This document shows, one piece after another, positions 1,386 to 18,618 of a stretch of 43,549 nucleotides of DNA. Source of the stretch: Armatimonadota bacterium (GTDB lineage Bacteria > Armatimonadota > Zipacnadia > Zipacnadales > UBA5352); contig JAYENL010000082.1 of NCBI GenBank assembly GCA_034722055.1, positions 1-43,549 on the forward strand. The letters run 5' to 3'. A program made the translations under genes and the position numbers. Position 1 is the stretch's first letter. Every line of letters starts with the position of its first letter. The notes below the pieces were generated by a model. That model made no database searches. It was not told the origin of the DNA and saw only the letters and a list, made by a program, of their open reading frames with translations.

Positions 1386-2887
1386 GGCGGGCAGCGGCGG
1401 TCGCCGTGGCGCTCGCGCTGGCCGCCAGCGGTCTCGTCGCGGATGATGGCGGGCAGTGGCCCACGTTCCACTACGATGCCGCGCGCCGGGGCCATCCCCC
1501 CGTGAGGTTCAAGACCTGCGCCTTCGATGAGGCCTGGCGGTTCGATCTCGGCGGGCACACCTGGCGCTACGAGAAGGGCACCTCTGTGTGGTCGGCCTCG
1601 CCGGCCATCGCCCAGGTCGGCGGCAGGACGCTGCTGTTCATCGGGGCCTACGATCACAACCTCTACGCCCTTGACGCGGCCACCGGCGAGGAGGTGTGGC
1701 GCCTCACCACCGGCGGCCGGCTCAACGCCCCGCCCGCGGTGGCGAGGGTCGGCGAGCGGACTCTGGTCTTCATCGGCAGCGGCGATCGCACGTTCTACGC
1801 CGCCGATGCTGCCACGGGCGAGAAGCTGTGGTCGCACGAGACGCTGCCGTGGTCCTACACCACCGGCGTGAGCGCACCCACGGCGCCGGTGGTCGTGGAC
1901 ATCGGCGGACGCACGCTGGTGGCTGTCGGCTTCTGGAACACCGATCGGCGGGCGCTTCGCACCATCCAGCGCTCGGACGTGTTCGCCTTCGACGCCGCCA
2001 CCGGCGAGGTGGTGTGGCGCCGCAAGCTCGCCGACACTCCCATCACCTCGCCCGCCATGATGCCGGTCGATGGCCGGCCACTGCTGTTTATCGGCGCCGA
2101 GGACGGTCGCCTCATGGCGCTGCGAGCGACGGATGGGGCGCTGCAGTGGACCTTCACCAGCGATCACGCCATCACGGCCGCCCCCATGGCGGCTGCGTTG
2201 AAGGGCCAGCCCGCGGTGTTCGTCGGCAACCGCTGGGGGATGCTCAACTGCGTGAGCGCTAAGACGGGCGCCCTGCTCTGGTCCTCGAAGACGGGGCATG
2301 AGATCAAGTCCACGGCGGCCATTGCGCCGGTTGAGGGGCGCATGAAGCTCTACGTGGGCTCCATGGACCGCTACCTGCACTGCATCGACGCCTCCACCAG
2401 CCGCTCGCTGTGGCGCTTCCAGACTGGCAAGTTCGTGGTCTCCAGCCCGGTCGTGTGCGAGGTCGCTGGCAAGCCAGCGGTGATCTTCAGCTCGCTCGAC
2501 AACCGCCTCTACATGCGCGACGCCCTCAGCGGGCAGAAGATCTGGCAGTTCGAGACCGGGGACATGCTCTGGCCGTATGAGACCCGCGGCTCCAGCCTGT
2601 GGTCCTCACCAGCGGTGGCCGAGGTGGATGGCGAGCCGCAGATCTTCTTCGGCAGCTACGACGGCAACCTCTACTGCTTCAAGGCGGTGCCGCGCTGCTT
2701 CGCGGAGGGCCAGGACCTGGGCCCCCGCCCCGGCGCGACGCCGGCCCGGGAGGAGGGCTCTCGCAGCCGCCCGCTGGTCTTCCTCCCGCCCATCCTGGGC
2801 CTGGGCATGATCGTCGCTGGCTTCGCGGTCATGCTGACCTCACGTGGTAGGTCCAGCGATGCGGGCGCCGGCGACGACCGGTGCTGA
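1382..2887 (+). CDS. Secreted PQQ-like (BamB-type) beta-propeller repeat protein with C-terminal membrane anchor
   Basis: Signal peptide, WPTFHYD..R.G start motif, repeated LYALDAATGE..W blades, C-terminal hydrophobic helix; ATGA overlap with the upstream stop. Confidence 0.85.
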   Translation: MRRAAAVAVALALAASGLVADDGGQWPTFHYDAARRGHPPVRFKTCAFDEAWRFDLGGHTWRYEKGTSVWSASPAIAQVGGRTLLFIGAYDHNLYALDAATGEEVWRLTTGGRLNAPPAVARVGERTLVFIGSGDRTFYAADAATGEKLWSHETLPWSYTTGVSAPTAPVVVDIGGRTLVAVGFWNTDRRALRTIQRSDVFAFDAATGEVVWRRKLADTPITSPAMMPVDGRPLLFIGAEDGRLMALRATDGALQWTFTSDHAITAAPMAAALKGQPAVFVGNRWGMLNCVSAKTGALLWSSKTGHEIKSTAAIAPVEGRMKLYVGSMDRYLHCIDASTSRSLWRFQTGKFVVSSPVVCEVAGKPAVIFSSLDNRLYMRDALSGQKIWQFETGDMLWPYETRGSSLWSSPAVAEVDGEPQIFFGSYDGNLYCFKAVPRCFAEGQDLGPRPGATPAREEGSRSRPLVFLPPILGLGMIVAGFAVMLTSRGRSSDAGAGDDRC

Positions 2888-3072
2888 CGTGCCCAATTCC
2901 GCGTATGTTGACGATGAGCACACTCGGGACTTGGTTGCGTTGGAGATGAGGGGCTACCCGGTGGAGGGACAGAAGGTTCCACCTGAGGATGACCGCTATG
3001 TCGCCATCATCAGACTGGAGGGAGGGGGCCTGTTCATATAGGAGAGGCGAGCGGCCGAGAGGAGGGCTGACG

Positions 3073-5238
3073 ATGGCACGGTTGCGAGGTCGTCATCGCA
3101 ACTCCGACGGCGACGTCAGCGACGATCTGCTTCCGCTGGCCGAGCATATCGCACAGCATCTGCACGCCGGGCGGGTGCCCTGGGAGGAGCTGTCCCAAAC
3201 CGAGAAGGAGCGCGCCCGCCTGACGGCGCGCGAGACGCTGCAGGCCATCCTGGCCCTCGGCTACCGCATCGAGCCTCAGCCCGCCGAGGAGACCGCCCAC
3301 ACCGAGCCCACGAGGCCGCCCGGCCTTCCCCGCGAGCGCGATGACCTGGACCTCGAGGACGTGTCGCACCTGTGGCGCGTGGCAGGGGCGGATCCGCGGG
3401 CCCGCACGCCCGAAACGCACCGCGACTTCGGCGAGTGGCTGCTGCGACTGGGGGCGCCGCTGATGGCCTACGACGTCATCGCCGAGGGCCTGGATCGCTG
3501 GCCGGAGGATGTGCGCCTGCGGCAGTTGCTGGGGCTGGCTCTGGCGCGCAGCGGTGCGACGGAGCGCGCCAACTCACTGCTGCGAGAGCTGCGCGATGAG
3601 GGCCACGCCGACGAGGAAACTCTCGGCATGCTGGCCCGCACGCACAAGGACCTCTGGCAGCAGGTCGCGGACGCGGCCACGCGTGAGCGCGAGCTGCGCC
3701 TGGCGCACGAGGGCTATGAGCAGGCTTACCGCAAGACCGGCGGCTACTGGACGGGCATCAACGCGGCCACGATGGCACTGGTGCGCGGGCTGCGAGACGA
3801 AGCGCGCGAGCTGGCGGAGGAGGTCCGGGACCTGTGCCAAGCGGAGCTCGAAGACGCCGAGTCCGAGGGCGGCGAGCACTACTGGCCGCTGGCGACGCTG
3901 GGCGAGGCGGCGCTGATCCTGGGCGACGAGGAGGAGGCCGCGCAGTGGTACGAGCAGGCGGCGGAGGCGGGCGCCGGCCAGCTCGGTGACCTGAGCTCGA
4001 CGCGGCGCAACGCGCGGCTGATCCTGGAGCACGTGGACTGCGACGCAGGGGCGATCGAGGGGTGCCTGCGCATCCCGAACGTGATCGTCTTCGCCGGGCA
4101 CATGATCGACCAGCCGGGGCGAGCGGAGCCGCGCTTCCCGCCCGACCTGGCGGATGAGGTCTACGCCCAGATCCTGGACCGGCTGGAGCGGCTCGAGTGC
4201 GGGGTCAGTTTCGGGTCCGCGGCGTGCGGCGCCGACATCCTGTTCTCGGAGGCCATGCTGGAGCGTAGCGGCGAGGTCCACATGGTGCTGCCCTACGGCC
4301 GGGAGCAATTCGTTGCCGACAGCGTGGACATCGCCGGCGGCGACTGGCGGGCGCGCTTCGACCGGGTGCTTGAGGAGGCGACGTCGGTGGTGACGGCCTC
4401 GTCCTCGAGGCTCACCAGCGGCAGCGTGTCCTACCACTACGCCGACCTGCTGGTCTACGGTCTGGCCGCCATGCGGGCGCGGGAGCTGCAGACCGACCTG
4501 GTGCCGATGGCCGTGTGGGATGGCAGGCCCGGCGACGGCCCCGGCGGCACCGAGAGCATCGTGCGGCGCTGGGAGGAGCTCGGCCACGAGGTGGAGGTCA
4601 TCGACCTCGCCGCGATCCTCCGTGCCGAGAGCCCGGCGGAGGGCGCCGCCGGCGGGCCAGGACCCACGCCATCCCTGCGCCCCGCACCAGTCCATCGCGT
4701 CATGGCCATCCTGTTCGCCGACCTGGATGACTTCCACCGGCTCACCGAGGCGCAGATCGACATCTTCGTGGAGGAGTTCCTCGGGGGCATCGCGCGGCTT
4801 GTCGATGAGACCGCGCCCGGGCTGGAGATGAGGAACACCTGGGGAGATGCGCTGTTCCTGGTGTTCTCGAGCGTCGCCGAGGCCGGCCGCTTCGCCCTCG
4901 AGCTTGATCGGTTCGTGAGCGAGACCGACTGGCAGGCGCATGGGCTTCCGGCCGAGCTGAAGCTGCGGACGGGCCTGCACGCGGGGCCGGTGCACCCATG
5001 CGTAGGGCCGATCACACACACTCCCGACTGCTTCGGCACGCACGTGACGCGGGCGGCACGGCTGGTGGAGATCACCCCGGCCGGCCAGATCTACGCCAGC
5101 CAGGCCTTCGCCGCGCTGGCCTCCGCCGAGGGCGTGACGGACTTCGCGTGTGACTACGTCGGGACGCAGGAGCTGCCGAATGAGGCCGGCACCTGCCCGA
5201 CGTATCACGTCCGGCCCGCGCAGGGCCGGATGCCGTAA
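3073..5238 (+). CDS. Multidomain protein: shortened RyR-like repeat, TPR (DUF4071/TPR-S-like), SLOG-like domain, class III nucleotidyl cyclase
   Basis: VPWEELSQTEKE..ARETLQAILALGYRI (RyR); ETLGMLARTHKDLW, YWTGINAAT, YWPLATLGEA (TPR); VFAGHMID, SAACGADILF, AVWDGRPGDGPGGT (SLOG); ILFADLDDF, NTWGDALF, RTGLHAGPV, FGTHVTRAARL (cyclase); GGAGGG before ATG 3073. Confidence 0.85.
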   Translation: MARLRGRHRNSDGDVSDDLLPLAEHIAQHLHAGRVPWEELSQTEKERARLTARETLQAILALGYRIEPQPAEETAHTEPTRPPGLPRERDDLDLEDVSHLWRVAGADPRARTPETHRDFGEWLLRLGAPLMAYDVIAEGLDRWPEDVRLRQLLGLALARSGATERANSLLRELRDEGHADEETLGMLARTHKDLWQQVADAATRERELRLAHEGYEQAYRKTGGYWTGINAATMALVRGLRDEARELAEEVRDLCQAELEDAESEGGEHYWPLATLGEAALILGDEEEAAQWYEQAAEAGAGQLGDLSSTRRNARLILEHVDCDAGAIEGCLRIPNVIVFAGHMIDQPGRAEPRFPPDLADEVYAQILDRLERLECGVSFGSAACGADILFSEAMLERSGEVHMVLPYGREQFVADSVDIAGGDWRARFDRVLEEATSVVTASSSRLTSGSVSYHYADLLVYGLAAMRARELQTDLVPMAVWDGRPGDGPGGTESIVRRWEELGHEVEVIDLAAILRAESPAEGAAGGPGPTPSLRPAPVHRVMAILFADLDDFHRLTEAQIDIFVEEFLGGIARLVDETAPGLEMRNTWGDALFLVFSSVAEAGRFALELDRFVSETDWQAHGLPAELKLRTGLHAGPVHPCVGPITHTPDCFGTHVTRAARLVEITPAGQIYASQAFAALASAEGVTDFACDYVGTQELPNEAGTCPTYHVRPAQGRMP

Positions 5239-5489
5239 TGCGGAAGAAGCACGCACTGGACCGGCCTCGATGAGCGGCGTCGGCGGGGACCGTCACGGGC
5301 CCGGTCTTCACCTGAACGGCGTGCAGGCAGGGGCGCATCCATACTGAAGACGTGGGCGGGGACGGAACCTCACCGCCGCCTGCAGAGAGAGCGGCGCTTA
5401 CCGCTCGTTATGCTCGCGGCGGGGCCGCCATGGCGGCAGCAGGCGCGTTGGCATGGCGCGGACAACACCCGAACTCTCGCCACTACTGC

Positions 5490-7238
5490 TTACTGCTCCT
5501 CGTTCTCGCCGTGCCGGGCGCTGGGAGCAAGGCGAACTTCGAACGGGCCGCCAAGACCGGCGGCCAGGTGCCCGATTGCCTCAATGAGTTCGCTGCGTGT
5601 CTCGCGGACGTCGCTGGTCCGTGGCAGGGCCTCAACGATGTCGCGCGCGCTTGCGAGCACCTCATGACTGCCCTGCACGGAGGCGCGGATCTCCTGCAGA
5701 GTCGCAAGCATCGCCTGGTCCTGCTCGCGCCGCTGCACCTCCGCCCGCCGAGCGTCCTCGCGCGCGGCGGCGATGGCGTCGAGGCTCTCTCTCATGTCCG
5801 CCAGTGCGCCGGGCGATTCGCTCAGTGCGTCATACAGAGCGCCCAGCCGCTCGCCGATCCCGTTGAGCGCCGCCAGAGTCTGGTCGTGCTGCTTCTGAGA
5901 GGCCATCTGAGCTCTCTGCAGTGTGTTGAGGCTGTCGTCTATGCCCCCGAGCGCCGCAACCTGCTCCGATAGCGCGCTGCTGTGCTTCCGGAGCGCCTCC
6001 TCGACGTTCTGCATGATCTCCGCTGCTTCGCCGATGGCTGCGGTGGTCTCCTCCACGCCGCTCACGTCCGGACCCCACGGCCGCGCGGGCTCCGCTTCCT
6101 CGCGGCTAAGCGCCGGCAGCACCAAGTCGGCGATCTGCTTGTGCACCTGGCCCAGCAGGTCATCCTCGAAGCGCTGAACGTAGGTGGTCGGTATCATCAG
6201 CAGCAACGCGACGACGAGGCCCACCAGCGTGGTGTTGAAGGCATAGGCCAGTCCGCCGGTCACCGTCACGAGGCCCTGTTGGACCTGCGCCATCTGCATG
6301 GTGCCACCGGTTCCTCCGATCATGGTGGAGAACTCGCCGATGGAGAGGCTGATGCCCAGGACGGTTCCGATGAAGCCGATAATCGGCGCCGCCCATATGA
6401 AGACACGCACGATGTTGAGGCTGCCCTCCAGTGTGTCCCCGTCGATGTATCCCTCGTCGAGCACGCTCTGGCGTACCTGAGAGATATCCCGACCGCGATC
6501 CCACTCCTCGAGCGCGGTCCGGGCCCGCCCCAGGAACACACCCAAGTGCTCGTCCGGTATGCCGTGCAGGGCCCTCAGCGCGGCCCTGGTGCTCCTGTCA
6601 TGCCCGGAACGGATCATACGCAGGATGCTCTTCGTCAGCTCGCTGTCCATCATCTGGCGCTCGCGACGCCCCAGCCACACCCGCAGCCCCAGCCAGCAGC
6701 CTCCCCACAGCAGCAGCAAGAGGATCAGCCACGGGATCGTCGCCATGGCTCCAGCAGGGAAGAGGACCGCATGCAGCCATGCGTCCTGAGGGACCAAGCC
6801 GCGCAGAAGGACATTGAGTATCAGCATCAGGACCAGGGCTGCGGCTCCGCTGCCAAGGAAGGTCCGCGTGACCTGTCCAACGAGCAGACCCACGCCGAAC
6901 GGGGGAGTGAGCTCCCGCTGCTGTTCCAGGTCCTCACCGCAGATGGGACAGACGCTGTCATCGCCGCGGGCTACCACATTCCCGCAGCTCTGGCATACCA
7001 CAAGGTCCTCTCGGGGCTCGACCGGCGGGGGTGGTGGGGGAGGCAGATCGTCAGGGCGGTCCGCCTCCGGCGCCGCCCCCTGCCTCACGGGGATTGACTC
7101 CGAGGGCCCCGGAGTGCCTGCACTCGCGTCGCCGGACCCCGCCGCGTCCCCATCGAACTGAAGTGGTTCGCCACACTCGTGGCAGTACCGCCCGGCGGGT
7201 TCCCTCAGTGGGGCATTGCAGTGCGGACATCGTTGCAT
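5490..7238 (-). CDS. MotA/TolQ/ExbB-family ion-channel protein with N-terminal zinc ribbons and a long C-terminal helical tail
   Basis: APIIGFIGTVLGI and GLAYAFNTTLVGL channel motifs; CPHC..CHECG and CQSCG..CPICG; about 220 aa heptad-rich tail; GGAGGG before ATG 7238. Confidence 0.85.
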   Translation of the reverse strand: MQRCPHCNAPLREPAGRYCHECGEPLQFDGDAAGSGDASAGTPGPSESIPVRQGAAPEADRPDDLPPPPPPPVEPREDLVVCQSCGNVVARGDDSVCPICGEDLEQQRELTPPFGVGLLVGQVTRTFLGSGAAALVLMLILNVLLRGLVPQDAWLHAVLFPAGAMATIPWLILLLLLWGGCWLGLRVWLGRRERQMMDSELTKSILRMIRSGHDRSTRAALRALHGIPDEHLGVFLGRARTALEEWDRGRDISQVRQSVLDEGYIDGDTLEGSLNIVRVFIWAAPIIGFIGTVLGISLSIGEFSTMIGGTGGTMQMAQVQQGLVTVTGGLAYAFNTTLVGLVVALLLMIPTTYVQRFEDDLLGQVHKQIADLVLPALSREEAEPARPWGPDVSGVEETTAAIGEAAEIMQNVEEALRKHSSALSEQVAALGGIDDSLNTLQRAQMASQKQHDQTLAALNGIGERLGALYDALSESPGALADMRESLDAIAAAREDARRAEVQRREQDQAMLATLQEIRASVQGSHEVLASARDIVEALPRTSDVRETRSELIEAIGHLAAGLGGPFEVRLAPSARHGENEEQ

Positions 7239-7289
7239 GGTTCTACCCTCCACATCGAACGGCAGTCCAAACTCGGGCGCGACCTTCGG

Positions 7290-7976
7290 TCAGGCTTCGG
7301 TGCCCAGGTCCAGTCCCGACCCGTCGCCCTCGCCGGTGAGGCGCTCGGAGAGCGGCCAGGTGGGAATGAATGGCTGCCAGCCCATCCCGAAGCCCCGCGC
7401 GTCCAGTACGTCAGCGGCCGCCAGGAAGACCTCGATGCTGCCGGGGTCCACGATGAAGCTGACGTAGTGCTCCTCCGGGTCAAGCTCGTCGAGCATCCGG
7501 TTCAGGTGGGAGTCCCGATCTGCGACCTCTGCCGGAAGATCCGCCCCCCCGCCGGGCGCAGGCCTGATGTGGACGCCCACGTCCAGTGAGCGCTGGCTCT
7601 GGAAGAGAAGGTCGGTCTGAAGGTAGCCGGCAAAGCCCTCCACGACGACGTAGCCGTCGGAGAGCGTCTTCCCGTCCCAGCGGTCGATGAACGAGGGCAC
7701 GCTGTGGTAGGTGGTGGGCGGGGGCACCTGCTCGACCAGGTCTTCAACCAGAGGCTGAAGCCGGAAGGGCCGCACTGTGTTGCCCTCGCAGAGGGCGTAG
7801 ATCCGCTCCTTGCCCGACTCGTGGAGCTTGGGGAGCCGTCGCTTGGCGACGATATCACCGCTGGCGAGCACGCCCTGGAGCATCATCAGCAGGACGATGC
7901 CCACCGAGCAGGTCACAATGTCGGCGAGCGAGTTGACGTCAACGCCTTGGCGAGTGCGGCTCCTGCGCCGTCGCAT
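7290..7976 (-). CDS. ExbD/TolR-like single-TM partner subunit
   Basis: Arg-rich N-terminus, then NSLADIVTCSVGIVLLMM with an Asp at the start of the TM; adjacent to the MotA-like gene; 1-nt overlap with the upstream gene. Confidence 0.65.
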   Translation of the reverse strand: MRRRRSRTRQGVDVNSLADIVTCSVGIVLLMMLQGVLASGDIVAKRRLPKLHESGKERIYALCEGNTVRPFRLQPLVEDLVEQVPPPTTYHSVPSFIDRWDGKTLSDGYVVVEGFAGYLQTDLLFQSQRSLDVGVHIRPAPGGGADLPAEVADRDSHLNRMLDELDPEEHYVSFIVDPGSIEVFLAAADVLDARGFGMGWQPFIPTWPLSERLTGEGDGSGLDLGTEA

Positions 7977-8443
7977 CAGGCCTCAGCCTCCTCATAGCGC
8001 AGACTGACGTGCTTGTCCTGCGCCACCGGCCAGTGGCCCAGGTCGATGTTGTGAGCATTGATCAGCTCTGCCAGCTCGCGGTAGTTCGCGAAGCCCGAGG
8101 GGCGAATCGCGACGAGGATGTAGAGCTGACCATCGCTTTGCTCCACCGTGTCGAGAAGCTCGCCGAACGCCGTGTCGTTGTCGCCCTCCAGCTCCTTCGC
8201 CGCGCTCCACGGCACCGGGGTCTGCCCCTCCTGACTGTCGATCACGACCTGAGAGCCGTCCCAGACCACCAGGCGCGCCTCGCTTCTCATCTCACCGGCT
8301 ATCTGCCACTGCTCCGGGACGTTCGTCATGCGCCCACAGATGAGGGATATGGCGATCATCATCAGCACGCCCAGTGCACATGACAGCCCATCGAGGAACG
8401 GGAAGAGGTCCATCTCAGCACGCCACTTCGGCCGCCGACGCAT
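7976..8443 (-). CDS. Second ExbD/TolR-like single-TM subunit
   Basis: MRRRPK..MDLFPFLDGLSCALGVLMMI resembles the ExbD N-terminal PxxD motif; C-terminal YILVAIRPSGF resembles YVSFIVDPGSI of the neighbouring gene. Confidence 0.65.
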   Translation of the reverse strand: MRRRPKWRAEMDLFPFLDGLSCALGVLMMIAISLICGRMTNVPEQWQIAGEMRSEARLVVWDGSQVVIDSQEGQTPVPWSAAKELEGDNDTAFGELLDTVEQSDGQLYILVAIRPSGFANYRELAELINAHNIDLGHWPVAQDKHVSLRYEEAEA

Positions 8444-8465
8444 CGCCGCCCGCCTCCTTGCCCGG

Positions 8466-10469
8466 TCAGGGCGCTCCCGGCGCCTCGACCGCTTCTGGAC
8501 CCTGGCTGTCGCCCAGGCTGGCCACCGGTCTGCCGAACATCAGAAGCTCGCCTGACGTGAAATCTTCGGGGACGCTGAATGCCAGTTTGCATTCCACCGG
8601 CTCGGGACCGAGCGAGTTCGGAAGCGGCGGCTCGAATGTGGCAGAGCAGCCGTCGGCGTCCTTGAAGCCCAGCGGTGTTCTGACACCCTCCGCCGTCCGG
8701 AGGCCGAAGGACGACGAGAAGGCCTCGGTGGGCGCCCGCCCCAGGTGCAGGAGCGTGACCTCAACTATCACAAACGTCTCGCCCTCTTTGGCCTTACTCC
8801 ACGCCTCGCGCGTTCGCAGCGAACCCCGGCCGTAGGCCAGGAACTCCGCTGTGAGGAGGTCCTTCTGCCGGCTGTGCACATGGGCCGAATGCACTCGCCA
8901 CGGCTGTGTGGGCTCGCTCAGTTCGGCATACTGCTCGGTCTGCTGGAGATAGTCCTCCACCAGTTGCCACCACGACGCGGCCTGCTCCCAGTCGTCCGCC
9001 GAGAGCCGTGCGTACCCTCTCTGTGCCAGCACGGTGGCGAAGTGCTCAAGCACTTGGGGCTCCACGAGCCGGCTGTGCTCTGAGATGGACCCCAGCGCAC
9101 GCGTCAGGTGCCGGTCGTGCGGGGCCTCACAGACATCCAGCGGCACCCGACAGGCGTTCAGCCACAGGGAGACCGCGAGCCGCTGGAGGAGAGACCTGTC
9201 TTGGCGCTCTTCGCCCCGCACCGGCACCTCCTCGCCGTTGGGGTCCGACGGCGGCGGGGATAGTGGCGGCAGGGACGTTGTCGGGGGCGTCAGCATGCCC
9301 TCGGGCCCGGCGTAGTGTGCCTCTGCCTCAATGTCCTCGAGGATGGGCTCCGTGAAGGCGACGACATCTGCGGTGTGAAGGGGGCCAGGAGGCCGGTTCA
9401 AGGTCTGCGCGGCAAACGCCCGGGCCAGGGCGGGGACCGCCGGATCCGCTACGGAGATGATGACGAAGAGGGCGATGAGCGTGGCGGCCACGGCGATGTG
9501 CACCGGCCTTCTCCGCGCGGACAGGCGCGCCCCCAGCCGCGCCCGGAGGGAGAGGGCACGGACCTTCAGCCGGTCAAGCGCACGAACCTCGGGGTGAAAC
9601 GCGCCCCGCACAGCCGGATGGAACCAGCGCCCGAGCCAGAGCACTATGAACGCCCAGGGAGCGGCGAACAGCAGGAGAACCCAGAACATGTCGGCGGCGG
9701 AGTTCTCTGCGCTCGCCGCCATCTCCATGACAGCGACAAGCCCCAGGATGACGAATAGGAGCAGCGCAGCGGCAACCGCCACGCTGGCGATGAGCCAGGC
9801 AATGCGGCTGCGTCGAACCAGGCCCGCCACCAAGCCGATAGTGCCTGCGGCCAGGAGCACAGCTTCGCCAATGGCCCCGGCAGCAACCAGACTGGCCACG
9901 ATCACGGCGCCGGCGAGCCCGATCCCAACGATCCACACCCACCCCTCCAGGGGGAGCCACCTTGAGGCGAGAGGGGATGAGATCAGCCGGGCGTACCGTG
10001 ACTGTCCTGACGGGTTCCTGCCGCAGGCGATGAAGCCGCTGATCGCCTGGTCGGGTATGCTGAAGCTGTAGGGCCTGACACAGTCGCAGACAATCTGGCC
10101 GGCGCCGCGGCAGCGACTGCAGCCCTCGACCTTGAGGCGGCTCTCACCGTCGCACACGGGGCAGATGAGCATGCCGCGACCGCCGCATGCCGGGCAGTTG
10201 GGCGTCGCCAGGTAGGCGGTCGCTCTTCCGGCCTCGACATCCTGCCGGCCGGGCCGAAGGGTGGGCAGGCCCAGCCCATCGAGGTGGCGGCGCAGCGCTG
10301 ACCAGACGCGCTCGGTGACGGGTCCGGGCTCGTCCTCGTCGGCTGCTTCATGCATCCGCCGAATGGCACCGAGTCGGGCAAGCGTCTCTCCCGAAGCCAA
10401 GGGTGCGAGTCTCTCGGCCAGATGGTCAAGCCAGTCTGGGCGGGCCTCAGCCCCCGGGCCGCCAGGCAT
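8466..10469 (-). CDS. Membrane protein with DnaJ-type zinc finger, several TM helices and a C-terminal DUF4352-like Ig-fold domain
   Basis: CPACGGRG, CPVCDGES, CSRCRGAG, CDC; hydrophobic helices; AKEGETFVIVEVTL..G and LAFSVP near the C-terminus; GAGAGG before ATG 10469; start uncertain. Confidence 0.6.
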   Translation of the reverse strand: MPGGPGAEARPDWLDHLAERLAPLASGETLARLGAIRRMHEAADEDEPGPVTERVWSALRRHLDGLGLPTLRPGRQDVEAGRATAYLATPNCPACGGRGMLICPVCDGESRLKVEGCSRCRGAGQIVCDCVRPYSFSIPDQAISGFIACGRNPSGQSRYARLISSPLASRWLPLEGWVWIVGIGLAGAVIVASLVAAGAIGEAVLLAAGTIGLVAGLVRRSRIAWLIASVAVAAALLLFVILGLVAVMEMAASAENSAADMFWVLLLFAAPWAFIVLWLGRWFHPAVRGAFHPEVRALDRLKVRALSLRARLGARLSARRRPVHIAVAATLIALFVIISVADPAVPALARAFAAQTLNRPPGPLHTADVVAFTEPILEDIEAEAHYAGPEGMLTPPTTSLPPLSPPPSDPNGEEVPVRGEERQDRSLLQRLAVSLWLNACRVPLDVCEAPHDRHLTRALGSISEHSRLVEPQVLEHFATVLAQRGYARLSADDWEQAASWWQLVEDYLQQTEQYAELSEPTQPWRVHSAHVHSRQKDLLTAEFLAYGRGSLRTREAWSKAKEGETFVIVEVTLLHLGRAPTEAFSSSFGLRTAEGVRTPLGFKDADGCSATFEPPLPNSLGPEPVECKLAFSVPEDFTSGELLMFGRPVASLGDSQGPEAVEAPGAP

Positions 10470-10664
10470 GCGCAATACCTCTCTTCGCCCACGGTCAACA
10501 TTGCGTTGCACTCCGACGCGCCTCGGCATGTTCGACATCAGAGTGTCGTTATCCTTCAAGGGGCCAGGTGGAAGATGACGTTGACGAGGGCAATAGCGCA
10601 AGCATGGCGGCAGGCGCAACTCGCCGGCCGGGGCCAAGGCCGGGCGCGGCGCCCGTAGCTGGAC

Positions 10665-12047
10665 CTACGTAGCGATCGCCCCACGCAGCCTGTCGAGGTC
10701 GAGTCGGACGAAGTGCAGGTCCGCCAGGGGGGGCGGTGGGTCGGGGCTGAGAGGGTCCTCCCAGAAGACGGGCCGTATGAAGCCTCCCTCACGGCGGTGT
10801 CGGTTCAGCGCATGCCGCCACTCCTTCTCAACATAGGGAGACGAGGCTGCCCTCGGCGACCAGAAGAGCTGGAACGCGTCCACTTCGTCGATGGAATCCA
10901 GCAGCCTCTCCGCCCACGGCTCGCCGGCGCGCAGCATCCGCACATCTCTCAGGTAGCGGTCGCCGATTGCCTCCGCGTAGTGCTCACACAGCTCAACGAT
11001 TGCCACATCATCGTGCGAATACGAGACGAAAACGCTTCGATACGGATTGCTCAGGCACCGGTCCATGACATCCATATGCGGCGACCGCTTCTCGCGGGCG
11101 CAGTATATCGACAGATCCACTGTGCCACAGATGAACGTGCCCTGCAGGAATGTGACGCTGCCGTTGCAGCCCCTGCCCGCTCTCTCCGGACTGACGCGAA
11201 AGGCGAACTCCGCGCTCTGCCACAGGTCTCCCGGCCAAAGCATGATCTCAGTCTCGGGAGGCGAGAAGCGCACCCCCTCCGCCTGGGGAACTACGGTGAC
11301 CGGCAGGTCCCGGTCGATGGCCGCATCGGCCCACACCGCAGAGGCTCGGATGCCGCCCCCCGCCCGCGGCTTGGCGCTGACCCTCTCCGCTGCGTCGGCG
11401 GCGACGTCGCGCAGCGCGGGTGGCTCGTGAATGTAGGTGAGCAGACTGCCGGTCTGCTCCGGCATGGCCTCCTTCGGGTGGAAGACCGCGAGCTGCAGTG
11501 CGTCCTGCTCGGCGTCTGCCTCCTGTGCCCCTCGTGTCAACTCGGGGGCCGTCCGTTTCGCCCACTGCCGGACAGCGCCCCACAGTTCGACGTGGACAGA
11601 GCGCTCGAGTTCACGTCTGCCGCTCGCCGACTCAGGCGTGTGGTGGTGGAGCACGACACGCTCGCCCCCCTGCCGCAGCCTCGCGCACAACTCCGCGTGT
11701 CGGGCAGCTTCATGCAGGAACCACAGGCGTCTCTCGGCGCCCCCGGGAAGAGGCCACTGGTCCGGGAGCATGTCGGCGAGAGCATGTGCGGCCGATGCCG
11801 CGTCTCGTCCGCCGAGGACCACCACCCAGGTGTTCCGGGCTCCGGCAACGCGCCGCAGCTCCCGGCTGAGAGCACCGCGGGTGGGGTCCCCGAGCTCAAT
11901 CTCGTGGACCCTCAGATCCAGCCTCCACTCCCGCATGGTGCGCTTCAGCCCGGGCCACACACTCTCGCGGAGGTAGCGAGCCAGCTCCGCTCCCTCTCCG
12001 AAGCCGCGGACGACGATGAGCTGCACGCAGCCGTGCGGAGTAGCCAC
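10665..12047 (-). CDS. TIR domain protein (C-terminal TIR, degenerate DUF4062-like N-terminus)
   Basis: SVFVSYSHDD, LRAGEPW, FQLFWSPRAASSPYVEKEWRHAL, FIRPVFWE; GAGGAGG before GTG 12047. Confidence 0.85.
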   Translation of the reverse strand: MATPHGCVQLIVVRGFGEGAELARYLRESVWPGLKRTMREWRLDLRVHEIELGDPTRGALSRELRRVAGARNTWVVVLGGRDAASAAHALADMLPDQWPLPGGAERRLWFLHEAARHAELCARLRQGGERVVLHHHTPESASGRRELERSVHVELWGAVRQWAKRTAPELTRGAQEADAEQDALQLAVFHPKEAMPEQTGSLLTYIHEPPALRDVAADAAERVSAKPRAGGGIRASAVWADAAIDRDLPVTVVPQAEGVRFSPPETEIMLWPGDLWQSAEFAFRVSPERAGRGCNGSVTFLQGTFICGTVDLSIYCAREKRSPHMDVMDRCLSNPYRSVFVSYSHDDVAIVELCEHYAEAIGDRYLRDVRMLRAGEPWAERLLDSIDEVDAFQLFWSPRAASSPYVEKEWRHALNRHRREGGFIRPVFWEDPLSPDPPPPLADLHFVRLDLDRLRGAIAT

Positions 12048-12262
12048 GCTGATCGCCTCCTCAGTCCGACACGATCCAGCAGGGCCGCTGTTATGATGAT
12101 ATGATGGAGACTGCACGGAAGTCAACGCAACGCCGGGATGGCGCACCGGCGGGGCCTGCTGCTATTTACAGCAATGCTGAGCGGGCCCGGGGGCCGGTAC
12201 GAAGGGATGCCTGACCCGGTGGCGAAATGGGCACCGGCCGTCCGCCGGAGAGGTCAAAGGCG
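12048..12262. promoter_or_regulatory. Probable divergent promoter region between the TIR gene and the CHAT gene
   Basis: Non-coding gap between divergent starts, with locally AT-rich stretches (gttatgatgatatgat, gctatttacagcaat); no specific site assigned. Confidence 0.45.
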
Positions 12263-14398
12263 GTGGGGACGTTGAGGGTCGTTCATCTGAGACTGCGTGA
12301 CGGGCCCGACGAGTGTGAACTGGGGATCGACTACCAGGCCTCGGACCTTGCATGGGTCGCGGCCGGTCGGAGTCGCATCGATCGGGACACCGTTGACGAC
12401 CTGATCCAACAGGTGGAGGCGCGCCGGGCTCGAATGACAGAGGGCCAGGAGTTGGGTCAGGCCCTCTACGACGCACTGCTGGGTAATGATGCCACGCGGA
12501 TCGTGTGGCGGGAGGCGGAGAGCGCGGCGGAGGATGAGCCCGTGCGCCTGTGCCTGTCCGCTGACGAGAGCGATCTGCAGCACCAACTGGACCTCGTGGC
12601 CACCCCCTGGGACGGGCTGTACGACGGGCGCAATCACCTCTGGCTCGGCTCTCGACGGGGAGTGCTCTACCGCATGCCCTGGCGGCCGGAGAACACCTGC
12701 CGGCCGGGTCCTGAACTGCGCGTGCTGGTGGTACACACCACCCCCCTGGACGCAGAGCGCCCTTTTGAGGAACGCGTTCCTCCCCTGAAGGCGCTTGACA
12801 CCAAGGCACTCAGAGACGAGCTCGACGAGCTGGCCGAGCAGACGTGCAAGCGGCTGCGATGGCGCGAGGCCGACGCCCAGATTGACGACCTCACGTTGGT
12901 GCTGAGCGATTTCAGGCCCGATGTTGTGCACTTCGTGGGCCACTCCCTTGCGGGGACCGACGATGATCCGCGGCCCGTACTGGTCTTCGTCGATGGCGCC
13001 GGACGAGCCACCTGCGTGACGCCCTCACAGTTGGGACAGTGCTTCCACAGCGCAGACTGGTATCCCCGTCTGGTCGTCCTCACCAGTTGTCGGAGTGCCC
13101 AGTTCGCCGTTGAGCTGTTGCGCGAGGGCAACCCGGTGGTGGTGGGATGCCGGTACAAGGTCAACGACCGTGAGGCCAAGAGGCTCGACAGCGCCATATA
13201 CCGCGCCCTCGCACGAGGAGCCGCTATTGACCAGGCCGTTGCTGAGGGACGCCGGGCCGTGATTGACTCCCCGGAAGCGTGGTGTCCTGCCGACTGGATG
13301 GGGCCCTTCGTGGCGACATCGCTCGACCCCCGCGCCCCCCTCGTCCTCTACGATGTGCAGGCTGACGCCCCTGAACCCGAGGCACCGCGCCCCGTCGGCG
13401 TGCGGAGGGAGGCGAAGGCGCGTCGCGGCGGAACGCTGGCGGCTGTGCTGGCGATTGCCGGTCTGCTCATGGCAGTTGCGGGCGCCTGGCTGCTGCTGGG
13501 GCATGAGGAGGTGCCGCCCGGCATGGTGCTGGTGCCGGCGACGGACGCCTTCACTTACGGCTGCCAGGACCCCGCGGCCCTCGAAGCCGCCGTGCACGAG
13601 ATAGAGGCCCGGGCCCAGGAGCGGTGGCGCCACACCATCCAGCAGGCGCGCGAGCAGGGCCAGGAGGTAACCGAGGAGGCGGAAGAAGAGGAGATCGCGA
13701 TACTCACGCACAATCTGTGGGTGATGGCCAACCAGTACGCCAATCTGCCAAGCGGCAGCAAAGCCATGGCGCCCTTCCTGATCGACAGCCATGAGGTGAG
13801 CAACGCCGAATGGGCGGAGTACCTGGCGGCCGAGGTTTCCGCACCCGTTCCCATGGACTGGGGGAGCAGAAGCTGCCCGCAGGGGCGGGAGAGCGAGCCG
13901 GTGGGTGGGATCACCTTCGCCGCCGCACAGGCGTACGCCCAATGGCGCGGGAAACGTCTGCCGACCACCGATGAGTGGGAGTACGCCGCGGCTGGGGGGC
14001 GAGCCACGCTCTTCCCCTGGGGTAACAGCCCCGATCCTGCGCTGGCGAATGTGCGGGAGTCCTGGGGAGTAGACGCAGTCCCTCGACCCCGCCCCGTGAC
14101 GTGGGGAGAGCCCTACACATTCGGCCTCTACAACATGTCCGGCAACGTCTCCGAGTGGACGGTCGGCGCTGAGGGAGAGCCCGCTCTGTGCGGCGGTGAC
14201 TACCAGGAGAGCATGGTATCGGCCCTGGTCTTCAGACGCACCACCATGGCGCCCGGAAGCCAATGGCCCGAGGTGGGGTTCAGGTGCGCGGCCGACCCGC
14301 CGGGCCGCCAGAGCAAGATCATGGCGGGCGCTCTGCTCCTGGTCGGGCTGATACTGGCCGCGCTGGGCGTGTCGTGGTTCCGTGCAGGAGCCAGTTAG
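12263..14398 (+). CDS. CHAT (caspase-like) protease, TM helix, FGE-sulfatase/SUMF1-like domain, C-terminal TM helix
   Basis: PDVVHFVGH and LVVLTSCRS give the His/Cys dyad; FLIDSHEVSN, GKRLPTTDEWEYAA, FGLYNMSGNVSEW, VGFRCA mark the FGE fold; TMs flank the FGE domain; GTG 12263 after GGAGAGG. Confidence 0.85.
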   Translation: MGTLRVVHLRLRDGPDECELGIDYQASDLAWVAAGRSRIDRDTVDDLIQQVEARRARMTEGQELGQALYDALLGNDATRIVWREAESAAEDEPVRLCLSADESDLQHQLDLVATPWDGLYDGRNHLWLGSRRGVLYRMPWRPENTCRPGPELRVLVVHTTPLDAERPFEERVPPLKALDTKALRDELDELAEQTCKRLRWREADAQIDDLTLVLSDFRPDVVHFVGHSLAGTDDDPRPVLVFVDGAGRATCVTPSQLGQCFHSADWYPRLVVLTSCRSAQFAVELLREGNPVVVGCRYKVNDREAKRLDSAIYRALARGAAIDQAVAEGRRAVIDSPEAWCPADWMGPFVATSLDPRAPLVLYDVQADAPEPEAPRPVGVRREAKARRGGTLAAVLAIAGLLMAVAGAWLLLGHEEVPPGMVLVPATDAFTYGCQDPAALEAAVHEIEARAQERWRHTIQQAREQGQEVTEEAEEEEIAILTHNLWVMANQYANLPSGSKAMAPFLIDSHEVSNAEWAEYLAAEVSAPVPMDWGSRSCPQGRESEPVGGITFAAAQAYAQWRGKRLPTTDEWEYAAAGGRATLFPWGNSPDPALANVRESWGVDAVPRPRPVTWGEPYTFGLYNMSGNVSEWTVGAEGEPALCGGDYQESMVSALVFRRTTMAPGSQWPEVGFRCAADPPGRQSKIMAGALLLVGLILAALGVSWFRAGAS

Positions 14399-14546
14399 CC
14401 TCCTGCCGCCGCCGAGCCGCGCGCTGTTTCCCTCGTCGAAGCCCAGGCGCCACACCGCAGGACGCCCCCGCCGCGCACCCACACCAGACCGCGGCGCGAC
14501 CAGCTCCGGTCCACCCCAGTGCGCGCGCACCGTGGTGTGCGGACTT

Positions 14547-15599
14547 TTACGGCCGCATGACCACACACCAGTTGCGCCACTCGCCGGTCATCAGCTCCTC
14601 GGCCCGCAGCACCAGGCGCCGGAAGGCGAAGTCGAGCTCGGCCAGCTCATCATCATCCGCGTGCCCGTCGGGGACCTGGGCGATGAGCGTGGTGAACTGC
14701 GGGGCGAGCTTCGACAGCCCGGCGGCGACATCACGATAGAGGCAGCCCAGCCGCCGGCCCTGGTAGAGGCCCTGCAGAGCCTCCACGGCGGAGCTGGTTG
14801 GCGGCAGCACGATGGCCAGGATCTCGATCACCAGGCGGAAGCTGCTCTGGTCGGCGGGCGACGACAGCCACAGGGCGGCGAAGTGCATCCCCGCTGCGAT
14901 GGCGGCTGCCCCCAGTATCCCCCGTCGCCACCCCTCGCACCGATTGTCCAGCCCGAACCACCGCTCCGACCGCCTCTCGTAGTAGTCGATCTGCCCCTTC
15001 AGCCGCGCCGTCAGATAGCGCTCCCAGGGCTTCGTCGGCGTGGGGCAGATCTGCAGCGGATAGGGTTCCCCTGCGCGAAGCTGCTCCTGCCGGGCGTCCT
15101 CGAGGGCGTCGCGCCAGGGGATGCCCGCCTCATCGGACAGCTCCACGAACTCCATGGGGTCTCTGGCCGGATCCCCGATGCTGTCGAGCCGGGTCTGGAC
15201 CGTGGTCGCGAGCTGGTCCTCGGTGGTGCACTGCAGGTAGGGCCCCACCATGGCCGTGACCAGGAACTGCTCGCGACGGAGGACCTCGGCCCGCATGCGA
15301 GCGTCAATCCACTTCTCGGCCGGGGGCGTCTGCCGCGCGTAGCCCAGCAGCAGAGCCACGAACAGGACAGCCAGTTCTGCTCCGATGAGGACGATGGAGA
15401 CCGCGCTGCGCTGGGGGAAGACCAGGATCTGGACGCTGAGCAGCAGCGCCGCCGCGGGCGGCAGCAGTGCCCGGACGCTCTCCCATCTGCGGCTTCGCAC
15501 CTGGGCCTCCTCCGCACGCTCATCCCAGTGCCTCAGCCGCTCCTCGACCTGAGCCTCGAGCGCCCGCCGTGCCTCAGAGAACGCCTCCGATGCCATCAT
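14547..15599 (-). CDS. Tandem SLATT/DUF4231-type membrane protein (two 2TM units)
   Basis: Two TM pairs; WIDARMRAEVLRRE after the first pair, YLTARLKGQIDYY before the second, and terminal AEELMTGEWRNW. Confidence 0.75.
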   Translation of the reverse strand: MMASEAFSEARRALEAQVEERLRHWDERAEEAQVRSRRWESVRALLPPAAALLLSVQILVFPQRSAVSIVLIGAELAVLFVALLLGYARQTPPAEKWIDARMRAEVLRREQFLVTAMVGPYLQCTTEDQLATTVQTRLDSIGDPARDPMEFVELSDEAGIPWRDALEDARQEQLRAGEPYPLQICPTPTKPWERYLTARLKGQIDYYERRSERWFGLDNRCEGWRRGILGAAAIAAGMHFAALWLSSPADQSSFRLVIEILAIVLPPTSSAVEALQGLYQGRRLGCLYRDVAAGLSKLAPQFTTLIAQVPDGHADDDELAELDFAFRRLVLRAEELMTGEWRNWCVVMRP

Positions 15600-15850
15600 G
15601 GGCCCTGTCCCTCCCACGGGTGATACCTCACCACCGGCATGCCCGGCTATCTTTCTCCGCCACGTAGCTATGTCCTTTCCGTGCACGTGCTGCGAAGGCC
15701 ACGTCCTTCCGAGCCCGGCTGTCAACACGGTGGCGAAAGGTCGCGACGGTGTCTGTAGGGAACCGCCATCCCACGGGTGCCAGTTCAGAGCGAAGTGGGC
15801 CGCAGTCGTGCCGCGCGATGTGATACGTGCCGGGACGGAGGCGAGGCCGG
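15600..15850. promoter_or_regulatory. Probable divergent promoter region between the SLATT gene and the AAA-SLOG gene
   Basis: Non-coding gap between divergent starts; no specific site assigned. Confidence 0.35.
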
Positions 15851-18424
15851 ATGAGCGGGCAGCGCTTCGACGGAGTGGTGACGGGCGACCGGGGGATCAG
15901 CCGGCACACCTACATCGAGTCCCTGCCCGACCGGGAGGCGAACCTGCGCGAGGCCTGGGTGACCGCCCGCGAATTCACCACGGTCCGGGTGCAGGGCGGC
16001 GCCGCCGAGGTCGCGAGCGTGCTCGGCTGCGAGTGCGTCTCGCGGCAACAGGCGCGCGCGGATGAGGCCCCGCTGGAGTCCATCTACCTGCTGACCAGAT
16101 CGTCCGCGGACGGGGGCGGCGCCGGGCGAGGGCCCTGGCAGGTGAGCCTGGCCATCGTGGCGGGGGAGCGCCAGGTCTCCTTTGAGCGGCTTGAGCTCGA
16201 GGGCCTGCCGCCGGGCGCGCCCCTGGTGGTGGTGGACTTCCGCCAGGGCTGGCTGGAGTCGAACTACGAGCACCTGCCCGAGCTCCTGCGCGGCCGGCGG
16301 TACCTCGTCAGGACCCACGACCGGGTGAGCACGCGCGGCGCCGGCAGGACCATCCCCGAGGGCTACTGGGCGACGCTGCGCGCTGAGCTGGAGGCGCCCG
16401 GCGTGTGGTTCTCGCCCTATCAGGACATGGCCGATGGGGCGCTGCGCGTGGCCGGGAACTGGGAGACGGTGTCCGACACTCTCAGCGCCTACCTGCAGCG
16501 CGACGGCGGCAACGGTCTGTGGGATGGCGAGCGGTGGCTGCAGCACATCGTCATCCAGATCAGCTACGACGGCGCGCTGGTCGTCAGCCCGCCTGAGGAT
16601 GGCGCCGACCCGCCGGGGCGGGAGACCGTGCTGCGCTTCCCGTGCGATCAGCCCGGGAGCTTGAGCAAGCGGGCGCAGGGGACCGTCGTCGGGGGCGGAA
16701 TCTGCATCGCCGCGAGCCTCGCCGAGGCGCTGAGCGGCGACCTCACGCACGACCGCCTGGTGGAGCAGACGCGAGTGGGCCTCGCGCGAGCGCGGAGGCT
16801 GGTCACGCTGGGCTACTCGGACCCGCCCGAGCGTCAAGGCCTTGCCGAGGACCCCCCGCAGAGCTGGCATCTCTTCCCTCAGCCCGTCCACGAGACGCCG
16901 CTGCACGCCGAGCTGCCGGTCCGCCTCTCGCCGCCCGAGCAGTCGATGGACGCCGCACTGCGGATCCTCACCGCCGACCAGCGCACCTATGAGCGGATGA
17001 TGGTCTATCGGTTGGGCAAGCTCTACACCTGTGAGCCAGCCTTTGCCGAGCAGCTTATCCGGCTCGAGGATCGCATCCAGTCGCACGTGCACGCTGACGA
17101 GGAGGAGGTGATGAGCTTCGCGGTGCTGGGCACCCCCGGCTCGGGCAAGTCCTTCGCGGCGAAGCAGCTGCTCGAGGCGGTCGGGGGGAAGCTGGAGCCG
17201 ATCGAGTTCAACGTGAGCCAGTTCACGAGCGAGGAGCTGCTGGTGGATGCGCTTCGGCAGGTGCAGACGCTGTCGCTGCGGGGGAAGGTGCCCTTCGTGA
17301 TCTGGGACGAGTTCGACTGCGTCCACGAGGGCAGTGAGGGCGGATGGCTGAGCCGGTTCCTGATGCCGATGGCGGACGCGCAGTTCCGAGTTGGCGGCGA
17401 CGTCGCGAGGTTGGGCAAGTGCGTGTTCGCGTTTGTGGGCAGTGTCTGGTCGAACGCGGCGGAGTTCGACGAGTGGGTGCAGCAGCCGCCGGCGCCGGGA
17501 CTGAAGGGGCGCGACTTCCACAGCAGGCTCGACCGCGTGCTCCAGGTGCCCAGCGTGGAGATCGCTCGGGGTGAGGAGCGGCCGCTTGGATGTCCGCTGC
17601 TGACGCGGGCGCTGATCATCCGGCTGGCGCTCGCGGGCAAGGGTCTGGCGTCGGTGGATCGGAATGTGGCGGAGTTCCTGCTGACCGCGGATCTGCGGCA
17701 CGGTGTGCGGTCGCTGCGCAAGATCATCGACGCCAGCCAGCTCGACCGGACCGAACGCTTCTCCGCCTATCATCTGCCCCCGGAGGAGGTGCTACAGGTG
17801 CACGCGGCTCCCGGGACGAGGCCAGAGCCGGACAGCGACACTACGCCGTTGCGTCTGGAGTGGACACGCGAGGAGGTCCGCGTGGGGGTGACGGGCCACC
17901 GCTTCCTGGCGGAGATCGAGAAGCTGCGGATCTCCGTCGAGCGGGCGCTCGACGAGGTCGAGACGGCATTCCCCGACCGCGGGCTGGCGGTCATCTCGCC
18001 GCTGGCGGAGGGGGCGGATCGCCTCGTGGCCGAGGCGGCCCTGAAGCGCGGCGCGGAGCTGCTCGTGCCGCTGCCACTGCCGAAGGATGACTACATGACC
18101 GACTTCGAGAGCGAGGAGTCGAAGCAGCAGTTCCTGGAGCTGCTGGATCGGGCTGTGGAGGTCATCGAGCTGCCTGAGACCGACGAGCGGGACGAAGCCT
18201 ACGCGCAGGTCGGCGAGTGGGTGCTGGACCACTCCGATGCGCTGATCGCGATCTGGGACGGCCAGGCCGCGCAGGGCCGTGGCGGCACCGCGGACATCGC
18301 CGGGCGCGCGCTGGACCGGGGCATGCCGGTCCTGCACATCAAGGCCGGCAACCGCAAGCCCGGCACCACCGAGCCGACCAGCCTCGGGGAAGAGCAGGGG
18401 GAGCTGGTCGTCCACAACCTCTGA
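15851..18424 (+). CDS. Degenerate PfkB-like domain, AAA+ ATPase, C-terminal SLOG domain
   Basis: VVTGD, GGAAEVA, ISYDGALV, TVVGGGI (ribokinase fold); GTPGSGKS Walker A, VIWDEFD Walker B, DFHSRL, HGVRSLRKII; VGVTGHR, SPLAEGADRLVA, IAIWDG..AQGRGGT (SLOG). Confidence 0.8.
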   Translation: MSGQRFDGVVTGDRGISRHTYIESLPDREANLREAWVTAREFTTVRVQGGAAEVASVLGCECVSRQQARADEAPLESIYLLTRSSADGGGAGRGPWQVSLAIVAGERQVSFERLELEGLPPGAPLVVVDFRQGWLESNYEHLPELLRGRRYLVRTHDRVSTRGAGRTIPEGYWATLRAELEAPGVWFSPYQDMADGALRVAGNWETVSDTLSAYLQRDGGNGLWDGERWLQHIVIQISYDGALVVSPPEDGADPPGRETVLRFPCDQPGSLSKRAQGTVVGGGICIAASLAEALSGDLTHDRLVEQTRVGLARARRLVTLGYSDPPERQGLAEDPPQSWHLFPQPVHETPLHAELPVRLSPPEQSMDAALRILTADQRTYERMMVYRLGKLYTCEPAFAEQLIRLEDRIQSHVHADEEEVMSFAVLGTPGSGKSFAAKQLLEAVGGKLEPIEFNVSQFTSEELLVDALRQVQTLSLRGKVPFVIWDEFDCVHEGSEGGWLSRFLMPMADAQFRVGGDVARLGKCVFAFVGSVWSNAAEFDEWVQQPPAPGLKGRDFHSRLDRVLQVPSVEIARGEERPLGCPLLTRALIIRLALAGKGLASVDRNVAEFLLTADLRHGVRSLRKIIDASQLDRTERFSAYHLPPEEVLQVHAAPGTRPEPDSDTTPLRLEWTREEVRVGVTGHRFLAEIEKLRISVERALDEVETAFPDRGLAVISPLAEGADRLVAEAALKRGAELLVPLPLPKDDYMTDFESEESKQQFLELLDRAVEVIELPETDERDEAYAQVGEWVLDHSDALIAIWDGQAAQGRGGTADIAGRALDRGMPVLHIKAGNRKPGTTEPTSLGEEQGELVVHNL

Positions 18425-18618
18425 GGAGTCCCGATGATGGCTGCCGAGGCGTGGAGCCCCGAGGCGGACGCATCCCCCATCCGCTCGCCATCCGCCTGAT
18501 CGAGGTGCAGCAGGAGCACGGTGTGCACGTCCGGCTCGTACGGCCGGTCCTCACTGGCCCAAATGGGGCATGTCAGCAGCGTCGCCAGGGCCACGAAGCT
18601 CAGGCCCACCCCAGGCAC
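18425..18618 (-). pseudogene. 5' fragment of a secreted LamG/ConA-like domain protein
   Basis: RBS, signal peptide and PYEPDVHTVLLLHLDQADG..GDAS..GLHA, typical of LamG domain starts; the frame then runs antisense into the AAA-SLOG gene. Confidence 0.55.

Follow-up and report, generated by a model that had tools for sequence, protein, structure and literature searches.

We analysed a window of 43,549 nucleotides, the whole of contig JAYENL010000082.1 from the Armatimonadota bacterium assembly GCA_034722055.1 (genome G000, 92.7% complete), in which nine long, contiguous open reading frames (ORFs), g1 to g9, fill positions 3073–18424, or 2989–18424 if the longest ORF of g1 is taken. The ORF list and Pfam bear out an earlier reading of this DNA (the original prediction) in that the nine genes adjoin one another and none of them is metabolic. 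By orientation the genes fall into four blocks (g1 forward, g2–g6 reverse, g7 forward, g8 reverse, g9 forward). We refer to g5-g4-g3-g2 as module A, to the g8–g9 pair as module B and to g1 as module C. The features of the block are as follows.

Left border, 2881–2968, no strand: interspersed repeat of ~88 bp, with more than 30 copies in G000.
g1, 3073–5238, forward (longest ORF from 2989): degenerate RyR repeat, TPR-S, SLOG-like domain and class III cyclase; module C.
g2, 5490–7253, reverse: double zinc ribbon, membrane helices, MotA/TolQ/ExbB channel and helical tail of ~170 residues; module A.
g3, 7290–7976, reverse: ExbD/TolR-like subunit 1, with Asp19 in the membrane helix; module A.
g4, 7976–8443, reverse: ExbD/TolR-like subunit 2, without a conserved membrane Asp; module A.
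g5, 8466–10538, reverse (longest ORF to 10637): DnaJ-like zinc finger, about five hydrophobic helices, helical region and DUF4352-like beta domain; module A.
g6, 10665–12047, reverse: orphan N-terminus, conserved middle domain and TIR with catalytic-type Glu.
g7, 12227–14398, forward: CHAT caspase-like protease, membrane helix, FGE-sulfatase domain and membrane helix.
g8, 14547–15641, reverse (longest ORF to 15728): tandem SLATT membrane protein; module B.
g9, 15827–18424, forward: pseudo-ribokinase (PfkB fold), AAA+ ATPase and SLOG, of an RyR-less subclade; module B.
Right border, 18426–18844, no strand: truncated gene fragment (18426–18618, reverse) and C-terminal remnant of an IS630-type transposase (18678–18844).

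Pfam searches (E ≤ 0.01) upheld the predicted class III cyclase of g1 (6.8e-9), the MotA-type channel of g2 (zinc ribbons plus MotA_ExbB, 1.8e-11), the TIR of g6 (TIR_2, 2e-16), the CHAT protease of g7 (5.5e-18), the AAA+ ATPase of g9 (AAA, 3e-4) and, with NCBIfam, the tandem SLATT of g8 (Pfam SLATT_1, 1e-6; NCBIfam SLATT_1, 2e-16, in two stretches). Domains beyond those first described are TPR-S in g1 (6e-21), an FGE-sulfatase domain in g7 (5.8e-30) with two membrane helices, and the ribokinase-fold N-terminus of g9. Three calls held in part. Of the two SLOG domains predicted, that of g9 stands with a YAcAr-type Pfam match of 0.007, which is below the cut-off; that of g1 has no Pfam match and is identified by tblastn cross-matches of 27–33% to SLOG domains of the g9 family. 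The RyR-like repeat of g1 is present as half a repeat (1.3e-5), degenerate and with its pocket deleted. The two proposed ExbD-like subunits, g3 and g4, form a pair of paralogues (hhalign 87%, E 3.8e-6), each with one N-terminal hydrophobic helix; an ExbD fold is putative, as sequence searches gave no match in Pfam, in PADLOC or among solved structures. Like g3 and g4, g5 has no Pfam match at this threshold, its best being weak ones of 0.045 and 0.012.

All nine genes are single-copy in G000, save for partial g7 domain matches on two other contigs. Four DNA sequencing runs from one brine study, which may themselves be the source of the assembly, cover the block evenly in all 30 bins, and contigs built from the reads bridge 1552–5003, 5192–9853 and 9907–19807, spanning most junctions with no single piece across everything (long joints in the reads, whose sides were <30 letters, were disregarded). 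The even coverage and the bridging contigs argue against a chimera.

The block is accessory, as had been proposed. The same-genus genome G001 matches positions 1–2877 of the window at 91% DNA identity and then carries different genes; synteny resumes at 18846, with 88% DNA identity over 18846–19707 and other genes beyond there. Both flanks are kept in G001, and the repeat and the IS630-type remnant mark the borders. The remnant has 82% DNA identity to a second copy in G000, which itself matches Pfam DDE_3 (3e-8). In G001 the flanks are on separate contigs, and neither terminal repeats nor a clean empty site was found. A promoter scan gave one site, against 0.9 expected. G+C content is flat overall across the block. 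Codon usage divides it into two layers: relative to a genome-wide reference of 3957 ORFs, codon adaptation percentiles are low for g2 (19), g3 (37), g4 (30), g5 (15), g6 (17) and g7 (18), an atypical layer, and host-like for g1 (71), g8 (43) and g9 (64), the flanks ranging from 46 to 70.

The conflict-related character of the block also held up, and PADLOC matches no system in it. What found no support was the claim that motor, TIR, cyclase, SLOG, SLATT and CHAT together form one envelope-sensing system. Homologues co-occur inside modules (g2–g5, and g8 with g9) and not between them, a lack that the original prediction itself named as refuting it: no whole gene co-occurs across modules at any of 80 g9-family loci, 24 g1 loci or four other copies of the g2–g5 quartet. 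We therefore regard the block as probably an accessory island of mosaic make-up, assembled in two steps or more, in which separately acquired modules sit side by side rather than form one defence machine. An older, host-like layer (g1; g8 with g9) would consist of pared-down members of NAD-signal (TIR/NIR-RyR-SLOG) gene families, and a later layer (g2–g7) would have added an ion-driven membrane motor encoded by four genes, together with a TIR protein and a caspase-like protease anchored in the membrane. That all nine genes make up one envelope-sensing defence system is highly unlikely. They are contiguous and accessory with no metabolic gene inside, g1 and g9, both from RyR/SLOG families, flank the block, and a composite of TIR, caspase, cyclase and membrane effector does work in Liu-DS6, according to PMC13069673. 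Against this, no whole gene co-occurs across modules in the 80 + 24 + 4 related loci, and the block has four orientation blocks, two codon layers and a broken RyR input; the nine-gene system is largely refuted by distribution.

In module A, which is part of the later layer, the order g5-g4-g3-g2 is kept in all four other copies (in G035, G033, L188 and G106), none of which lies near homologues of g1 or g6–g9. The g4 stop codon overlaps the g3 start. In g2, both the MotA_ExbB domain and the pore threonines are there, T297, T341 and T342 in the pore helices being invariant in 7/7 aligned sequences; the membrane-helix Asp19 of g3 is invariant in 3/3, and an Asp occupies the corresponding column in 3/8 of the aligned g4 sequences. 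Look-alikes of g3 in the Atlas are unnamed clusters, and g5 gave no usable match there. The g5 family is small, with 23 clusters at E ≤ 1e-10 among 1.84 billion and members in 3/161 genomes of the phylum. Of a set of six further loci, two duplicate loci already counted and were not recounted, and the other four are planctomycete; three of these four have a MotA match followed by two long ExbD-like genes amid housekeeping genes.

Five copies of g2 with g3 and g4 would form an ion-driven motor of the TolQ/ExbB type, and g5 would be its likely client. A weak, partial match of g2 to ZorA2 (2.8e-5) and its place as a MotA-like protein with a cytoplasmic helical tail in an accessory island resemble Zorya; the block differs from that system in having no ZorB/OmpA-type peptidoglycan-binding domain and no ZorC, ZorD or ZorE, in its short tail and in its two different B-type subunits. 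With the TolQ-TolR, ExbB-ExbD and AglRQS-type motors it shares one channel subunit that has pore threonines, beside two partners that differ from each other and have one helix each, a conserved Asp being present in one of them; PMC12204202 describes a tolQ-like gene with two unlike tolR-like genes from the PVC group. Module A departs from these motors in the zinc-ribbon N-terminus of g2 and in the polytopic zinc-finger partner g5, which has neither the SHLS motif nor a vWA domain, and the block has no TonB, TolA or vWA gene. In G106 the quartet (L207, G106:C43, 1–16021) adjoins DISARM DrmA, DrmB and DrmC, together with a zinc-ribbon protein and a protein of ~1130 residues; the latter is common to G035 and G106 (39% identity), and a search of G000 did not turn it up. 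As a motor variant the quartet is rare; its partner protein is of a new kind, and at one locus it clearly has a defence island as its neighbourhood.

The other two genes of the later layer are g6 and g7. The g6 TIR carries a Glu in the motif EKEW, which we take to be the catalytic residue. Its middle and TIR parts recur with other N-termini (Hsp70, WD40, membrane/YukD), beside kinase and ATPase genes or alone, while a search with the g6 N-terminus returns only itself. A DUF4062 domain at the N-terminus, suggested by eye, was rejected (hhalign probability 0.1%, E 0.48; no Pfam match). At L177 and L178, in two genomes of the family, a g6-type TIR module, fused to Hsp70 in L177, precedes genes for a Clp-like ATPase and a Ser/Thr kinase. 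The gene shares its strand with module A and is outside the conserved quartet. In g7, the His-Cys dyad H239/C288 is invariant in a two-sequence alignment and lies between the membrane helices; by predicted topology, its FGE domain would be of the outward type. One full-length g7 homologue exists among 66 genomes of the order (in G021), a metagenome scan gave no match, and a profile search with 8000 candidates scored returned g7 alone. At the G021 locus (L074/L180, G021:C62), the CHAT-FGE gene is divergent from a gene run that ends in TPR-MotA and one ExbD-like gene, with an AbiJ-like gene ~12 kb off.

A reading in which g2–g7 are one six-gene unit, with the motor g2–g5 sensing or powering an envelope event, g6 and g7 as its signalling and killing arm, and g1, g8 and g9 as older neighbours, bears directly on these two genes. 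It draws on their common atypical codon usage, on the co-directional run g6-g5-g4-g3-g2 with its short gaps, on the MotA-type gene near the G021 g7 homologue and on the DISARM DrmABC genes beside the G106 quartet. It is at odds with the absence of g6 and g7 homologues beside any of the four other quartets, with the unrelated contexts of the g6 TIR module, and with the 33 kb around the G021 g7 homologue, in which no TIR was found. We consider such a unit unlikely.

In module B, g9 belongs to a widespread family. The g9 family has at least 367 matching stretches in GTDB, of which the best 80 were examined, and occurs in 15/67 genomes of the order; the closest matches among the named loci listed are Armatimonadota, which points to a host that is probably of this phylum. 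It was not found in G035, G033 or G023, which are 86–95% complete and carry module A and/or g1. A predicted model of g9 (predicted local distance difference test, pLDDT, 86) places its AAA+ domain nearest to Lon, ClpA/B (ClpB-D2) and HslU by Foldseek, and its sequence preserves the Walker A, Walker B and arginine motifs. The N-terminal domain modelled alone (pLDDT 84) has a ribokinase (PfkB) fold by Foldseek. The Asp equivalent to the catalytic one, at the column that presumably corresponds to the GAGD motif, is present in 0/60 g9-family sequences.

Gene context was surveyed with local profiles within 10 kb of the 80 loci; the TIR profile was seeded from Pfam, and Pfam confirmed samples. Neighbours are concentrated within 3.5 kb. 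RyR repeats occur at 61/80 loci and SLOG at 39/80, of which 7 are fused, 31 lie within 3.5 kb and none lies beyond 5.5 kb. TIR is found at 28/80 (27 near and 5 far, for 462 kb versus 385 kb available), DUF4062 at 15/80 and one or the other at 39/80; an RCK channel occurs at 20/80 and SLATT at 9/80. MotA, CHAT, FGE and TPR-S were found at none of the 80 loci and class III cyclase at one. Two loci stand out for their gene content: L202 (G021:C95, 1–14000) is a fuller module B, with TIR-STAND, PfkB-like-AAA-SLOG, a stand-alone SLOG and DUF4062-STAND-WD40 in one gene run, and L134 (12055–14037), in an archaeal genome, has a TIR-AAA-RyR fusion beside SLOG, SLATT and PfkB-like-AAA-RyR genes.

Within the family, a quick IQ-TREE analysis with midpoint rooting, which does not tell a gain of RyR from a loss, places g9 together with its orthologues in G014 and G008 in a subclade that lacks RyR and has a long branch. 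Both orthologues have a channel-RCK-RyR gene nearby. Tandem SLATT proteins have reportedly been linked to SLOG and TIR in the work of Burroughs and Aravind. The one other g8 homologue among the 66 genomes, in G014, lies directly upstream of the g9 orthologue. The g9 gene is itself mosaic, its SLOG being 87% identical to a stand-alone SLOG of G001 and its ATPase 36% identical to that of G001. That SLOG compensates for RyR loss was considered and found no support: SLOG is at 12/18 RyR-less loci versus 26/58 RyR loci (Fisher p=0.18), and these kin are not independent. The most likely working scheme is that a TIR- or DUF4062-type NADase, which in G000 could be g6 or one of two other TIR genes, would make an ADP-ribose-type signal; the g9 SLOG pocket, perhaps together with the dead ribokinase domain, would bind it; and the AAA+ ring would then open or remodel the SLATT membrane protein g8 and arrest the cell.

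Module C, with the architecture RyR-TPR-S-SLOG-cyclase, has its own distribution. Near-full-length relatives of g1 were found in 2/40 sampled kin, neither of them in the family, and at 24 GTDB loci, 23 of which matched at 45–53% identity; a 25th, with a match to the cyclase alone, was left out. None of the 24 has a homologue of g2–g6, g8 or g9, nor any AAA, SLATT, MotA or CHAT, and one has an FGE-only match to g7, so that no whole partner gene occurs at any. A TIR gene is near 14/24, in two lineages (10 acidobacterial, 4 cyanobacterial) that amount to about two independent cases. The acidobacterial loci (L015, L020, L023–L025, L027, L028, L030, L031 and L033) share a conserved gene pair, in which a TIR protein of ~670 residues that has a ThsB-like match is followed downstream by an intact RyR-TPR-S-SLOG-cyclase. 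The g1 cyclase keeps both metal Asp residues; its specificity residues are unusual, with Asn at the specificity position and Thr in place of the transition-state Asn.

The RyR repeat offers a clue to the signal. Its family profile best matches Repeat12 (PF02026) of animal RyR1/2. PMC13232231 reports that the phage RyR-domain protein RyDEP binds and cleaves 2' and 3' cyclic ADP-ribose (cADPR) via H75, W78, H100 and D117, and 10.64898/2026.06.04.730250 describes RyR Tad as a related cADPR sponge. Relatives of g1 and g9 keep this H/W/H/D pocket, and the exact RyDEP spacing H-x2-W-x21-H-x16-D is found in 18/22 g1 relatives, 27/59 AAA-RyR proteins and 1/13 channel proteins. These two families differ from the phage proteins in being host-encoded and fused to a cyclase or an ATPase. 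In the window itself the spaced pocket is absent: the g1 repeat has lost about 25 residues, the Trp and the second His among them, and its Asp is replaced, and g9 has no repeat at all. Judged from its sequences, G000 is without a working RyR. We suggest that g1 would be a ligand-gated nucleotide cyclase whose relatives read a signal through the intact pocket, and that in g1, with this input lost, TPR-S/SLOG control would remain. Since RyR domains bind cADPR, DUF4062 is an NADase (10.64898/2026.09.04.749371), and type VII and type I Thoeris use a SLATT effector and a SLOG sensor, respectively (10.64898/2025.12.03.692087), our best guess for modules B and C is a path from an NAD-derived signal to SLOG and on to a pore or a cyclase, which goes beyond domain identity.

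These losses also bear on whether the island is partly decayed or non-defensive, with g1 and g9 serving stress or metabolite signalling, or being sensor-less relics, and module A being an envelope transport or motility motor. In G000, local profiles found no RCK channel, no DUF4062-STAND and no intact RyR (the genome being 92.7% complete), the ~1130-residue protein seen beside two other quartets is missing, the planctomycete MotA trios lie amid housekeeping genes, and the family proteins tested match no PADLOC system. On the other side, none of the nine reading frames is broken and the catalytic residues are retained, the RyR-less form of g9 is a conserved subclade of three genomes and no one-off loss, and TIR, DUF4062 and SLATT cluster tightly round the g9 family. 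Decay or a non-defensive role is in our view very unlikely.

The block was also compared with named systems. It shares with Thoeris I, IV and VII (10.64898/2025.12.03.692087) a TIR with catalytic-type Glu, SLOG, SLATT and a caspase-like protease. It differs in that there is no ThsA or ThsB match by PADLOC, SLOG has an AAA+ ATPase or a cyclase as its fusion partner in place of SIR2, the g6 TIR is C-terminal in a multidomain protein that is not adjacent to g8/g9 and is unpaired with g7 or g8 in relatives, and g7 is membrane-anchored with an FGE domain. A type IV Thoeris made of g6 and g7 was rejected, as the two show no conserved pairing. The Pycsar plus type IV Thoeris composite Liu-DS6 (PMC13069673) likewise combines genes for a cyclase, a membrane effector, a TIR and a caspase-like protein at a single locus; here the four counterparts form no single operon, nor do they travel as a set. 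PADLOC finds no PycC, PycTM or PycTIR in the block, and none for g1 or its full-length relative, and there is no cyclic nucleotide-binding domain among the nine proteins. No description of RyR/SLOG-AAA or RyR-TPR-S-cyclase systems was found in the papers searched, and the available portions of PMC7159879, PMC9503650 and PMC13069673 make no mention of RyR; Burroughs 2015 and Burroughs and Aravind 2020, or their supplements, may list these architectures.

Several points weigh against a mosaic of independent modules. The gene g6 lies just before g5 on the same strand, and in codon usage g6 and g7 fall into one layer with module A; the codon reference behind that layering came from a crude gene caller. 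In G021, a TPR-MotA gene accompanied by one ExbD-like gene, albeit of a different subfamily, lies ~6 kb away from the g7 homologue. Because of this neighbourhood and the common codon layer, it is possible that g2–g7 belong together. For two of the four other quartets the contig is <6 kb long, and in G033 g1 and module A both occur, each on a short contig of its own. The g8–g9 link is seen in one other genome, and the functional claims for the modules draw on sequence and distribution. A bolder combination would take g1, g8 and g9 as one older locus split by g2–g7, with an RyR-less AAA+ machine gating a SLATT pore in response to an ADP-ribose-type signal read by SLOG and the dead ribokinase domain, and the quartet as an anti-phage, ion-driven envelope sensor, Zorya-like but not Zorya, that is recruited to defence islands (next to DISARM in G106) and wired here to g6 and g7. 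As a whole this is unlikely, and the mosaic remains the reading we favour.

Beyond the block, three 36–37-bp repeats at 19861–19958 coincide with roughly tenfold read depth (19780–19960) and many loose ends, probably a genome-wide interspersed repeat. Two tandem proteins of 637 residues (37726–39639 and 39694–41607), probably paralogues, have weak Kelch/Reg_prop propeller matches.

What is particular to this window is the RyR-less g8–g9 pair with its g9 subclade, the eroded g1 and the stator quartet. The window yields three small testable units in place of a nine-gene system. L202 is a better test locus for module B than the window, and the RyR-less g8–g9 pair offers a minimal version for finding out if an ATPase-driven pore can be gated by SLOG alone. 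Taken together with cADPR binding by RyR domains, the widespread g9 family is a candidate host-side receptor pathway.

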